Source: an uncultured Candidatus Saccharimonas sp.
GTDB lineage: Bacteria > Patescibacteriota > Saccharimonadia > Saccharimonadales > Saccharimonadaceae
Direction: 5' to 3'
Assembly (NCBI GenBank): GCA_963518805.1
Contig: CAUQKG010000001.1
Location: 133,968-197,967 of the forward strand
Length of the DNA stretch: 64,000 bases
Position numbers and translations under genes: made by a program. The notes beneath the pieces were generated by a model, which was given only the letters and a program-made list of their open reading frames with translations, did no database searches and had not been told where the DNA came from. The first letter of the stretch is position 1. Each line of letters starts with the position of its first letter. Below, piece by piece: positions 1 to 5,929 of this stretch.

Positions 1-642
1 AATATTTTCGCTCCCAACTTCAATAACCTGATTGAACGCATCAGTAGTAATTTTTTTATAGCCATCAGTCCCCGTCAATTCTTTATTCATTGCCTGCTCA
101 ACGCCATAATTTCCACCATTATCATTCACAAAACCAAGAACTTGCGCAGCTAAATTTCCTTCAGGATAAACTCGGCGAGTTTCTGCGGTAAATCCGACCC
201 CATGAAATTTCTTTTCACGAATTGCATTTGCCTGTTTTAATGAAAGTTTAGTTCCAACAACTTGGTATCGTGTGCTGGTTTTTTCGAAAAGCTTTTCGAA
301 ATCATCTCTTAAATTTCCGCCAGCAATTTTTCTAAATTCTGAAATAATTTCACTTTTTTTAACTTTTTTCGAATTTGCAATTTCTTGCGGGTCAATCCAA
401 AGCGTATAAACAGTTTCATTCAAAACCATTTTAGTTAGTTTTTTGCCGTCCATTGCGTAAATTAAACCGCGTTGAGCTTTAATTTCGAATTGTTTTCTCT
501 GACCTTTATCGGCACGAGCACGATAATCTGCGCCTTCAATAACTTGCAAGAAAAAAAGCCGAACCACAATTACCGCAAAAACCCCTAAAATTGAGACTGC
601 GAGATAACCTGTTCGACTTTTATTCTTAAAACCTAAAATCAT
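1..642 (-). CDS. ftsI: Class B penicillin-binding protein (FtsI/PBP2 family), N-terminal part; runs off the window edge
   Basis: Not in the ORF track. Hand translation from ATG 642: MILGFKNKSRTGYLAVSILGVFAVIVVRLFFLQVIEG...AQRGLIYAMDG...RRVYPEGNLAAQVLGFVND..GNYGVEQAMNKELTGTDG. This shows a TM helix and the RG.I, R.YP.G and G..G.E motifs of the PBP dimerisation domain. It lies downstream of rsmH-ftsL. Confidence 0.9.
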   Translation of the reverse strand, partial: MILGFKNKSRTGYLAVSILGVFAVIVVRLFFLQVIEGADYRARADKGQRKQFEIKAQRGLIYAMDGKKLTKMVLNETVYTLWIDPQEIANSKKVKKSEIISEFRKIAGGNLRDDFEKLFEKTSTRYQVVGTKLSLKQANAIREKKFHGVGFTAETRRVYPEGNLAAQVLGFVNDNGGNYGVEQAMNKELTGTDGYKKITTDAFNQVIEVGSENI

Positions 643-692: not shown

Positions 693-1055
693 TTATTTTG
701 CGTAAGAAACTGACGCCGGAGTTGTCATTTTCTTTGCGACTTCGCTATTTTCAATATTCGAAAGCGCTGTAAGTCGTGCATTTTCCACTTCTAAATCAGC
801 CTTTTTAGTTTCTAAATCTGAAATTTTCGAATCAATTTGCTGAATTTCGTTTCCATAAAGTGCTGGTTTAGAAGAATTCATTAAGAAGATAATTCCAAGA
901 ACCGCAATCAAAACACCAAGCATCAAAAATTGCGTTACTGCACCAAGTTTTGCTGTTGGCTGAAAAATAGCGATGTTGTTATTTCTTCCATATGACCGCG
1001 ACGAAACTTGTGTTTGGCGACGGCGACTAACATAATTTGTGTTTGTTTTATACAT
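693..1055 (-). CDS. ftsL: FtsL-like bitopic cell-division protein
   Basis: Basic N-tail, single TM helix, then a coiled coil (ISDLETKKADLEVENARL). Canonical position between rsmH and ftsI. Confidence 0.7.
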   Translation of the reverse strand: MYKTNTNYVSRRRQTQVSSRSYGRNNNIAIFQPTAKLGAVTQFLMLGVLIAVLGIIFLMNSSKPALYGNEIQQIDSKISDLETKKADLEVENARLTALSNIENSEVAKKMTTPASVSYAK

Positions 1056-1093
1056 TGGTTTTTTGTTGCATTAAATTTAATATTCAATAAAAT

Positions 1094-1125
1094 AAAGCAC
1101 CAGACCAGTTTTTGGCTGGTGCCTT
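1094..1125 (-). terminator. Strong hairpin (terminator/attenuator-like) between rsmH and ftsL
   Basis: Minus strand AAGGCACCAG-CCA-aaaac-TGG-t-CTGGTGCTTT followed by ATTTTATT. Confidence 0.55.
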
Positions 1126-1263: not shown

Positions 1264-2160
1264 TTATTTTCTAATGCTCACTCGCAACTTTGCGCTGCGG
1301 GCTCGCGGATTATTAACATCTTCTTTCGCGCCATCAAGCGGTTTTTTGGTAATCGTCTGAAATTTAGACTCCAAACCTTTTTTCGAATCATCTTTGAAAT
1401 AATTCTTCACTATTTTATCTTCAAGACTGTGAAAAGTTATAATTCCAACTCTTCCACCTGAATTTAACAGTTTCGGAAGCAATTTTAAAACCTCTTCAAC
1501 TTGTTGAAGTTCATTATTTACAGCGATTCGAATCGCCTGAAAAGTGCGCGTTGCGGGGTGCGTTTTTTGCCAACCGCCTTTGTGCACGCTTAAAATTAAA
1601 TCAGCCAGCTGTGTTGTGGTCTCAATTCTCTGCTTTTTTCGAACTTCTAAAATTTTCGAAACGATTCTTTCAGCAAAACCGCGCTTTTCTTCGCCAAATT
1701 CAATTAAAATTTGCAAAAGTTCGTTCTTGCTTGCGAAATTCACAATATCTGCCGCTGTTTTTTTCTGCGCAGGATTCATTCGCATATCAAGTGGGCCATC
1801 TTTTCGAAAAGAAAATCCCCTTTCTGCAATATCTAACTGAGGTGAAGAAACACCCAAATCTGCCAAAATTATATCAAATTTTTGACCTCTTTTTACCAAT
1901 TCTTTTGCGGCCGAAAGAAAATCTTTATGTAAAATCTCTACACCTTCATTTTTAAACCGTTGAAGCGTGCGAATTGCATTTTCATCTCTATCAACTAAAA
2001 CCGAGTTTTCGAAATTCTCGGTTATACGCAAAAATTCGCCAGCATGTCCTCCGTATCCTGCCGTAAAATCGAGATAACTTTCACCTCTCTTTGGCTGGAT
2101 TTGTTGTAGACTCGCTTGCAATAAAACTGGTATGTGAACTGATTCTTCTGTGTAATTCAT
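1264..2160 (-). CDS. rsmH: 16S rRNA m4C1402 methyltransferase RsmH (MraW)
   Basis: Motifs HIPVLL, D.T.G.GGH, DLGVSSPQLD..ERGFSF..DGPLDMRM, HPATRTFQAIRIAVN.EL, TFHSLED, NPRARSAKLR. Confidence 0.98.
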   Translation of the reverse strand: MNYTEESVHIPVLLQASLQQIQPKRGESYLDFTAGYGGHAGEFLRITENFENSVLVDRDENAIRTLQRFKNEGVEILHKDFLSAAKELVKRGQKFDIILADLGVSSPQLDIAERGFSFRKDGPLDMRMNPAQKKTAADIVNFASKNELLQILIEFGEEKRGFAERIVSKILEVRKKQRIETTTQLADLILSVHKGGWQKTHPATRTFQAIRIAVNNELQQVEEVLKLLPKLLNSGGRVGIITFHSLEDKIVKNYFKDDSKKGLESKFQTITKKPLDGAKEDVNNPRARSAKLRVSIRK

Positions 2161-2472
2161 AAATTTAAAGCCACCTAACTGATGATTAAACTTTTTGTTT
2201 TTGTTATATTTTTGTTTTAAGATTCATTATAAGTTTAGCTTTTTGCTTGGCGTATAGCCAACCATATTGCTGTTTGAGAGACTTATATATGAGGTGGAGT
2301 TTTATTTTGGGAGGTTTTAAAATGTGCTCCAGCTATTATTTTAACCTGGTTACTGGAATTTGTCCAGCTGTTTAATCACCAGATAGTTGACCTTAAATTA
2401 AAAACTACATCTATTTTAACGTGCTTTTATTTTTGTTTAGTGGTTTTTCTGTTTGTTTCTGTCGTTGCCACT
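2161..2472 (-). promoter_or_regulatory. Long structured 5' leader of the rsmH-ftsL-ftsI operon (candidate cis-regulatory RNA)
   Basis: About 310 nt between a predicted promoter and the rsmH ATG, with no long ORF. Several hairpins separated by A/C-rich linkers; CCACCT (2292-2297) is complementary to the RBS-like AGGTGG (2171-2176). Confidence 0.5.
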
Positions 2473-2478
2473 GATTTA

Positions 2479-2507
2479 AGTTTACCGCGAATTATTTTTT
2501 TTCGCAA
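2479..2507 (-). promoter_or_regulatory. Sigma70-type promoter for the dcw operon
   Basis: TTGCGA-17 nt-TAAACT on the minus strand. Confidence 0.55.
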
Positions 2508-2555: not shown

Positions 2556-2637
2556 TTTTCCACAACTATGTGGAAAAGCAAGCCTTTTAACAGATATTCC
2601 CTACTTTTCCACAATGCTTGTGTTTAATTGTTGAAAA
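2556..2637. promoter_or_regulatory. Cluster of DnaA-box-like 9-mers
   Basis: TTTTCCACA 2556-2564, TGTGGAAAA 2569-2577, TTTTCCACA 2605-2613, TGTTGAAAA 2629-2637; each 1-2 mismatches from TTATCCACA. Confidence 0.55.
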
Positions 2638-4831: not shown

Positions 4832-5929
4832 CTACTCACTTCCGATCATTCGTGGTGGTTCACCTTCTGGCTCATCGAGCAATTTTTTACTTTTAATTTC
4901 ATAACGACGCCCAGTGATTTCGCTCAAGATATAATCTTCATTAATTAAATTCACAAACATATCCAAATCGTTGCCATCCATAATAATGATCGCACCGTTA
5001 TCGTCCGTCATTAATTCAAGCTGCATTTCATCGGCATATTCAACCACTTTTTCTTGCGAAATCTCACCAATTTCATCCATTTTTTGTAATTTTGTAGCAG
5101 CCTTTTTATGCTCGCGAACCAAAGTTTGCAAATCTAAACCATCAGGAAAACTCAATTTATACTTTCTTTCGATTTCCAAAACTTTTTCATCAGCTAAAAC
5201 CTGTTTTTTATAATCATAATTAAAGAGTTTTTCAAATTTTCCTTGATTAAAAATAAAGATATCATTATTTACGATCAAAACTTGATTATCTGGCTGGATT
5301 TTTAAACCAAATTCAGGCTCAAATGCACCAAATTTGCCATTTCGAAATTCCCAAGCAGTTGCTCCGCGCAAAACCTGCCCTTGCATAATTTGTTTAGCAA
5401 CATAAAATTTCTCGCCTTTCGAATTTGTAAACCTTGCCAAAATTCCCTTAATCCGCTTAAAATCATGTTCGTTTTCGTTAAATTCCACAATATCGGAATA
5501 TTGCGTTTCGATTATATTTAATAGCGCATCAGCGTGTTGAACTTTTTGTAGTTCAGTTTTTAAAAGCACATCTTTGCTAGCGCTACCATCCATTTCATAG
5601 TCTCGAACACTCAAACCAGTTCCTGCGCCCATATTTACAAAGTTTATCATATCAAACAAAAACAACGGCTTAATTTGTGAGTTTAGTTCGCTTGAAAAAC
5701 TAGTCGTAAAAGGCACAAAATTTTTATTAAATAAGAAAAATTCTACATCAAGCTCATTTTTGATTCCATCAGTCAAATTTGCCCACTGAAAAATATCAGT
5801 TGACTCATCTTTTTTCGAATTTTCAGCTTCTTTAAAATTTTGGTCTTTATTTGAAATTTCAACCTCGTTTTCTGTCAAATTTTCAGTATTTTTGATCTCA
5901 GCGTTTTCAGTTCTAATATCTTCTTCCAT
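4832..5929 (-). CDS. DUF4868 / Kiwa KwaB-like domain protein
   Basis: 365 aa. The segment IFIFNQGKFEKLFNY...FVNLINEDYILSEITGRRYE resembles the KwaB/DUF4868 C-terminus (recognised from memory, needs an HMM check). 9 bp upstream of the helicase. Confidence 0.55.
   Translation of the reverse strand: MEEDIRTENAEIKNTENLTENEVEISNKDQNFKEAENSKKDESTDIFQWANLTDGIKNELDVEFFLFNKNFVPFTTSFSSELNSQIKPLFLFDMINFVNMGAGTGLSVRDYEMDGSASKDVLLKTELQKVQHADALLNIIETQYSDIVEFNENEHDFKRIKGILARFTNSKGEKFYVAKQIMQGQVLRGATAWEFRNGKFGAFEPEFGLKIQPDNQVLIVNNDIFIFNQGKFEKLFNYDYKKQVLADEKVLEIERKYKLSFPDGLDLQTLVREHKKAATKLQKMDEIGEISQEKVVEYADEMQLELMTDDNGAIIIMDGNDLDMFVNLINEDYILSEITGRRYEIKSKKLLDEPEGEPPRMIGSE

Follow-up and report, generated by a model that had tools for sequence, protein, structure and literature searches.

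A conserved RNA structure of the Saccharibacteria division operon, with a C/U-rich core that also occurs in phages

What fills the long gap in front of rsmH in a Saccharibacteria genome? Saccharibacteria have genomes of 0.6-1 Mb and few known regulators. The window, the 64,000-nucleotide stretch of DNA analysed here, is part of a 644-kb genome. Its minus strand carries rsmH (mraW; 1264..2160, 298 aa, Pfam PF01795, E 9e-91), a 120-aa ftsL-like membrane protein (693..1055) and the 5' part of an ftsI-like penicillin-binding protein (1..642, Pfam PBP_dimer, E 2e-21). The ftsL-like protein had no match in Pfam and NCBIfam searches and is named from its position and shape. The gap lies on the same strand between a 101-aa ORF and rsmH. 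An earlier, sequence-only reading took it to be a structured leader of about 310 nt that acts as a switch over the rsmH ribosome binding site (RBS). The motifs it quoted are all in place: the promoter, AGTGG/CCACT, the repeat AGCTGGA (2369-2363 and 2334-2328), ACTCCACCTC (2300-2291) and AGGTGG (2176-2171). We find that the gap holds a real, conserved, folded non-coding RNA at 2166-2395, which consists of a closing helix (P1), an H-type pseudoknot, an unpaired C/U-rich core and AAAAC repeats.

The region is structured, as had been proposed. For the minus strand the fold energy is -70.7 kcal/mol (z -5.95), a value that none of 100 shuffles equalled, and the plus strand of the same region has a z of -1.62. 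The dominant feature of this fold, overlooked in the earlier one, is P1 (2395-2370/2191-2166). Its 5' arm occupies 2370..2408, including a genus-specific extension at 2408-2403, and its 3' arm occupies 2152..2191; the latter contains AGGTGG and, in the extension, reaches over the rsmH ATG (2160-2152). P1 has 25 pairs and two conserved 1x1 mismatches. For comparison, 152 complete loci were reduced to 142 distinct ones and to 120 after a 90% filter, of which the 67 no longer than 262 nt entered the alignment. Twenty-three of the 25 pairs vary on both sides. Paired cells make up 91.1-92% of the P1 alignment, compared to 79.1% in shuffles and 24.8-48.8% in slid registers; shuffle counts of this kind are not probabilities, since the aligned sequences are kin. 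RNAalifold recovers P1 unprompted and leaves the core unpaired. The extension over the start codon also shows paired changes throughout the window's genus. P1 joins the ends of the element (at least 25 bp) in the manner of a processing stalk, and a duplex search for counterparts among rRNA stalks yielded no clean stalk.

The pseudoknot (2328..2367) has a CTGG/CCAG stem (2367-2364/2349-2346), whose loop TCCAG (2357-2353) pairs with CTGGA (2332-2328) across an A-rich linker. This explains the direct repeat AGCTGGA, because its second copy is the strand that pairs with the loop. It also corrects two of the stems drawn before. CTGGT/ACCAG had been thought to enclose CTGGA/TCCAG; the first CTGGT belongs to P1, and TCCAG is the loop strand of the pseudoknot. 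The stems AGTGG/CCACT and TATAAGT/ACTTATA stood. In relatives, loop and tail change jointly (CCGA/TCGG, CCGT/GCGG, AAGG/CCTT). When each loop was scored against its own tail (105 of 118 loci parsed, the window's own included), the mean was 10.9, compared to 6.7 against the tails of other loci and 7.9 in the best of 10,000 permutations. An alignment-free search parsed 108 of 120 loci and found the pseudoknot in 86 of the 108 at p<=0.05; the window's own locus was one of the 12 that could not be parsed.

Downstream of the pseudoknot lies a conserved G(C/T)(A/T)C..TT element (2321..2327), which is retained in phage copies too. It is followed by the nearly invariant, single-stranded core (2276..2315) with three modules that resemble anti-RBS sequences: ACCTCCC (2315-2309), ACTCCACCTC and ATAAGTCTCTC (2286-2276). 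The spacing between modules varies by 4-10 nt. Hairpin P4 (2228..2287), here TATAAGT/ACTTATA around TTGGC-tatac-GCCAA, is free in length and sequence across the order, and its ACTTA(T/C) partner was seen in 32 of 118 loci among the matches listed. The unpaired AAAAC repeats (2192..2218) form near-invariant alignment columns and recur in other-class homologs and several phage copies.

How widely is this RNA kept? In an even draw of genomes, 124 of 147 from Saccharimonadales have the exact core once each, and none of 104 from the other orders in the class has it. A match in a 125th genome was removed as a chance match inside a coding region (G077). A reversed control pattern of the core matched nowhere in the draw. 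Fourteen of the 22 genomes missing the exact core belong to one genus, g19, in which a model of the RNA finds a diverged but full element, with strong matches, in 25 of 31 genomes; g19 accepts inserted hairpins between the modules. The core lies upstream of rsmH in all 39 relatives that have rsmH (in one through a relaxed pattern), and the element is single-copy in the window's genome. A scan of the collection yielded at least 118 loci, two of which (L054 and L065) were dropped as chance. Among the matches listed, the named records with the element are nearly all Saccharibacteria, from which the window's genome, too, is probably of Saccharimonadales. Four records carry labels of other phyla (L095, L105, L107 and L156) and have Saccharibacteria-like mraZ and rsmH flanks; they are probably mislabelled or mis-binned. 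A core kept near letter for letter across an order, and copied by phages, is likely to be central to the biology of Saccharibacteria.

Where the element sits bears on whether it is a leader at all. Its usual position is between mraZ, normally the first gene of this operon, and rsmH, the two being 300-570 nt apart in other families. Because mraZ precedes it, the element does not form a 5' leader across most of the order. In the window's genus, mraZ is found in none of 25 genomes, compared to 15 of 16 in other families, and the promoter with the 5' AGTGG is kept in 23 of 24 loci, the sole miss being truncated by a contig end. This putative sigma70-type promoter, TTGCGA-17-TAAACT (2479..2507; TTGCGA at 2507-2502, TAAACT at 2484-2479, minus strand), is conserved with the AGTGG after it. 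AGTGG (2472-2468) and CCACT (2443-2439) form a 5' hairpin (2439..2472) that shows no covariation because both arms are invariant. AGTGG...AAAAACCAC is also found ahead of mraZ in other families, and the hairpin thus looks like an old mraZ 5' UTR left behind after mraZ was lost. The element itself is likewise retained after mraZ loss. No mraZ was found in the 15 g19 loci examined. The two genera without mraZ, that of the window's genome and g19 (L309-L328), belong to one family, and the promoter, 5' hairpin and RNA persist there. In three loci of other Patescibacteria orders (G119, G181 and G146), the gene after the element is ftsL-like rather than rsmH.

Upstream of the promoter there are three 9-mers (TTTTCCACA, in both orientations; 2556..2613), which resemble DnaA boxes. 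The cluster is one of four in the genome with at least three such boxes. These sites are conserved in the genus, with a constant ATCTGTTA between them.

The proposed switch did not hold up. In it, ACUCCACCUC would pair alternately with UGGAG or with AGGUGG, the supposed rsmH RBS. AGGUGG can indeed pair with the local 16S end (GGAUUACCUCC) and here lies 10 nt before the ATG. Forcing ACTCCACCTC onto AGGTGG gives a fold of -51.6 instead of -70.7 kcal/mol, a cost of 19 kcal/mol, and the pairing has an ensemble probability of 2e-13. UGGAG is a pseudoknot strand, which varies freely while the core does not. Across the loci, AGG(T/C)G occurs 4-14 nt ahead of the rsmH ATG in just 12 of 89, the distance from the end of P1 to the ATG ranges between -3 and 233 nt, and in four loci of the same genus AGGTGG has been replaced and the helix kept. 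We give a two-state switch almost no credence. The rsmH gene may often not need the element as a leader, judging from the sequence in front of its start codon: a -10 box lies 5-9 nt before the ATG in 28 of 89 loci, compared to 1-5 at other offsets. This box is ordinary for the group, since about a quarter of all genes have one; in three ortholog sets (G000, G027 and G102) a TATAAT-like box precedes the start codon by 5-9 nt in about that share. This suggests that leaderless mRNAs are frequent in Saccharibacteria.

The core is not confined to the operon. Together with the G(C/T)AC element, it is also present in 19 viral contigs, which include two near-identical pairs. Chance matches had been removed from the viral searches (L222, L223, L233, L234 and L236 of 20 in one search, and 31 of 41 in a second). 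The phage copies are without P1 and the pseudoknot, and no rsmH, mraZ, ftsL or ftsI was found in the fetched flanks of the 19 contigs. Next to them lie, among others, genes for a major head protein and a small terminase and, in one case, a cluster of 18 tRNAs. A promoter precedes 11 of the 19 copies, compared to 25 of 308 random positions, and an intrinsic terminator follows within 170 nt in 13 of 19, compared to 28 of 308. The strand framed in this way is the C/U-rich one, and the genes beyond the terminators are often on the opposite strand. The phage hosts are presumed to be Saccharibacteria because the core is confined to Saccharimonadales; a capsid search matched one of 301 Saccharimonadales genomes, at 24% identity, and tRNA similarity was uninformative. 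As a marker, the core sequence may help to link orphan phages to their hosts.

Some phage copies differ in detail. In one contig, a second small element with a AAGTCTCTC module (L221:1659-1802, minus strand) opposes the first copy and shares its terminator region. In a pair of related phages (L500 and L248), one copy has lost the CTCCACCTC module and kept the rest, with the flanking motifs conserved. The loop pattern of other classes, described below, was also searched for in viruses; of 85 matches, one had an A-rich repeat, and they are ordinary RBS-plus-ATG sequences read on the opposite strand.

Could the core act in antitermination? It would then be a nut-like site, a boxA with a core to which a factor binds, and would keep transcription processive through the long division (dcw) operon and through phage operons. 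A degenerate element (2414..2424), which we presume to be boxA-like, lies immediately 5' of P1, and a similar CTTTAACAATT occurs in 16S leaders. A lenient boxA pattern was present in 88 of 118 loci among the matches listed, a count made without a chance control. Phage copies also sit directly behind promoters. However, most of them run into a terminator within 170 nt, often with opposite-strand genes next, and Rho was not found in the 13 genomes searched. We consider antitermination very improbable.

A regulatory role in cis is the next possibility. P1 would be a stem for processing or attenuation: it would uncouple rsmH-ftsL-ftsI from mraZ and, in the window's genus, keep the rsmH start hidden until the helix is cut or unwound, with the core as a binding platform on the mRNA. 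This is consistent with the dcw position fixed in all 39 relatives with rsmH and with the covarying helix over the ATG; in addition, the mraW motif, which occupies the same position, is classed as cis-regulatory where it is described (PMC2864571). The variable distance from helix to ATG, the separate rsmH promoter in many loci, the retention of the element without an adjacent rsmH, and phage copies that end in terminators before often convergent genes all argue against it, and we regard a purely cis role as unlikely. Since P1 extends over the start codon in the window's genus, there is room for a local cis effect. As a separate observation, a strong GC-rich hairpin with a T-rich tail, resembling a terminator, lies between rsmH and the ftsL-like gene (1085-1125, minus strand), and a -10-like box is found about 8 nt ahead of the ftsI ATG; thus, the dcw cluster may be split into several transcripts.

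Hints at a target came from other Patescibacteria. Against 143 genomes of other orders, the model gave five weak matches, four of them directly behind mraZ, and against 30 other-order mraZ loci it gave five, all behind mraZ. By eye, eight of these 30 loci have a reduced form, a helix with CACCUC(C) and/or AAAACAAAAAC; twelve have no gap before rsmH. Based on the weak model matches (E 3e-7 to 0.04) and the position, the reduced form is probably a relative of the Saccharimonadales RNA. An unpublished genome (G190) supports no claim made here.

The loop of the reduced form, CCAUUUGUUCACCUCC, is exactly antisense to a strong RBS followed by AUG. A search of five genomes for its target returned ftsZ (TIGR00065) in two. 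We compared ftsZ starts from 28 genomes (10 of other classes and 18 of Saccharimonadales). In G149, G052 and G128, the loop matches the genome's own ftsZ RBS and start over 23, 28 and 22 nt, respectively, compared to 8-14 nt when ftsZ starts are taken from the other seven genomes of the cross-matrix. The two positions after CACCUCC co-vary between the RNA and the ftsZ mRNA, and the three duplexes have energies of -34 to -45 kcal/mol. In the comparison of own and crossed energies, G149 alone has a clear advantage with its own ftsZ; G052 ties, and G128 pairs slightly better with the ftsZ of G149. The pairing was not found in 7 of the 10 other-class genomes (8-11 nt), including one that keeps the same loop (G104). 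The order to which the three belong comprises four genomes here, and the fourth has the loop without an exact ftsZ match. These pairings make ftsZ a concrete, testable target in a sister lineage.

The Saccharimonadales themselves gave a different picture. Core pairing with ftsZ starts reaches 6-10 nt in 18 of 18 genomes, no better than that of the 16S anti-SD, and the surroundings of ftsZ, rsmH and mraZ yielded no complementary site that is conserved. Among 259 orthologs in three genomes, two genes were in the top 10% of all three, compared to none or one for shuffled cores. Pairing of the core with rRNA and tRNA was limited to 7-8 nt matches that differ between genomes. In G102, the 16S match (L214) is short, at 1390 nt, and gives way to unrelated sequence; the rRNA gene may carry an insertion there. 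Overall, no conserved mRNA target was found in Saccharimonadales.

Three individual candidates were considered. The start of rnc (RNase III; L162, G000:C2) pairs over about 30 nt with the core of the window's genome, the genus-specific TAAAA insert included. The match decays synonymously within the genus and is absent in five other families; since it decays, it is either chance or a recent, lineage-specific feedback. The pilC start ranked at the top in three genomes but within the top 5% in just 11 of 27. This match is explained by the terminal MRG codons of PilT, which vary synonymously. The pilT start regions (L549-L576) contain GGTGG in 7 of 26, compared to 16 of 777 background starts (about 2%). 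The pilT start was picked post hoc and among kin, and may be a weak lead as a target. GGTGG is missing from pilT in genus g19, whose matching core module is lost.

The reading we favor, with about even confidence, is that of a small RNA excised by RNase III that blocks ribosome binding sites, similar in action to DicF. Transcription would start at the dcw promoter, with the DnaA-box-like sites upstream of it, and RNase III would cut the element out of the division-operon transcript at P1. A gene for RNase III is present in 39 of 41 relatives (confirmed with TIGR02191). A Mini-III site, prompted by AGGU in P1, was rejected, as the RNase III-domain gene is single and full length. The freed RNA would act in trans, its core being predicted to pair with the RBS and start codons of target mRNAs and so to damp their translation. 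Action in trans is proposed because the phage core is free-standing and because the loop is antisense to ftsZ in three genomes. In the window's genus, cleavage would probably also free rsmH translation, because the helix covers the rsmH start codon; this would be a secondary effect in cis. Phages may use their own copy of the core to override host control of division or translation. More tentatively, the RNA could be a cell-cycle RNA of Patescibacteria in general, excised at the mraZ-rsmH junction, controlled by DnaA and MraZ, and silencing ftsZ and, in Saccharibacteria, a wider range of SD-led mRNAs that might include pilT; phages would have captured its core repeatedly to halt division or translation.

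Another possible explanation is that the core does not pair with mRNAs but serves as a decoy or scaffold. Its modules and the AAAAC repeats would capture an RNA-binding protein of the host, or else the translation machinery; the phage copies would titrate this factor. This could account for near-invariance across the order without a matching invariant mRNA site, for variable module spacing with hairpins accepted in phages and g19, and for the phage copy within a tRNA cluster; the hairpins inserted between phage modules suit a protein ligand with several sites equally well. As to the factor, Rho gave no match over the cut-off in 13 genomes, and the matches to the Era model in five genomes are double-GTPase proteins without the KH part. 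The decoy also leaves the 22-28 nt of ftsZ complementarity unexplained. We consider it rather unlikely. As a side observation, 6S RNA, SRP RNA, Rho and Era were all not found in the Saccharimonadales genomes searched.

The RNA was then compared with known families. Rfam searches found no family at E<=10 for the window or at E<=1 for eight homolog loci. Membership in the mraW RNA motif (RF01746, Actinomycetales), which the sequence-only reading had raised, was rejected: its covariance model had no match above the gathering score in the region or genome, and a Corynebacterium control did match. That reading was right that an undescribed RNA with an unpaired pyrimidine-rich segment holds the position of the actinobacterial motif. 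Both lie upstream of rsmH (mraW) and expose such a segment on a long helix. The published mraW alignment shows a CUUCCCC loop (PMC2864571) at the end of a single simple hairpin of about 107 positions, whereas here CCUCCC...CUCCACCUC stands in a multibranch loop of an element of about 230-280 nt with a pseudoknot, three C/U modules, AAAAC repeats and phage copies.

The closest parallel in action is DicF, a small RNA of the E. coli Qin prophage. As described, DicF is processed from a polycistronic transcript, has a 3' end made by RNase III and represses ftsZ through pairing with its RBS (PMC5069750); it is also phage-borne. DicF is restricted to prophages and depends on Hfq, whereas the core here belongs to a chromosomal dcw element that phages have copied. 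Complementarity to the ftsZ RBS is found in 3 of 10 other-class genomes and 0 of 18 Saccharimonadales genomes; that is, the ftsZ pairing is confined to one order outside Saccharimonadales, and the element has no Rfam match to DicF. A DicF-like mode of action is the likeliest reading, at about even odds, with the difference that this RNA belongs natively to the division operon and was copied by phages. UpsM of Rhodobacteraceae is reported as a small RNA of about 200 nt from the dcw transcript with a proposed action in trans (PMC5089854). In that account, termination and RNase E cleavage release UpsM from the 5' UTR ahead of mraZ, whereas our element follows mraZ and is bounded by a closing helix; no Rfam match links the two.

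Other classes were also weighed. C-rich anti-SD small RNAs, namely RsaE/RoxS, 6C and the cuckoo RNAs, have several unpaired C/U-rich seeds complementary to the Shine-Dalgarno sequence. They are separate genes with seeds in hairpin loops, unlike the element here, which has no Rfam match to them. For 6S RNA, RF00013 had no match in the genome or region, the terminal hairpin varies and is missing from reduced forms, and phage copies are without the closing stem. The models for RNase P RNA and tmRNA match another contig, and SRP RNA had no match anywhere in the genome. MraZ operators are GTGG repeats at a fixed 10-bp spacing; here module spacing varies by 4-10 nt, the element is kept where no mraZ was found, and GTGGG repeats lie upstream of mraZ instead. 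A riboswitch is improbable, since no alternative fold coupled to an expression platform at a fixed distance was found.

The RNA is undescribed in the papers searched, and supplementary motif lists could hold it as an unnamed cluster. In the candidate table of PMC8040213, 11 rows lie near rsmH and 8 have the mraZ model PRK00326, and none of these is entered under Saccharibacteria. A term search in the text of three genome-language-model preprints from 2026 returned no mraZ, rsmH or Saccharibacteria. The RNA family is thus apparently undescribed, and it is neither of the mraW family nor an RBS switch. It offers a direct handle on division control in an epibiont, in its host-attached and free states.

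Lastly, the window also contains, at 4832-5929, an ORF with a KwaB-like (Kiwa) domain beside a PIF1-like helicase. A similar ORF is found upstream of the RNA locus in genus g19.
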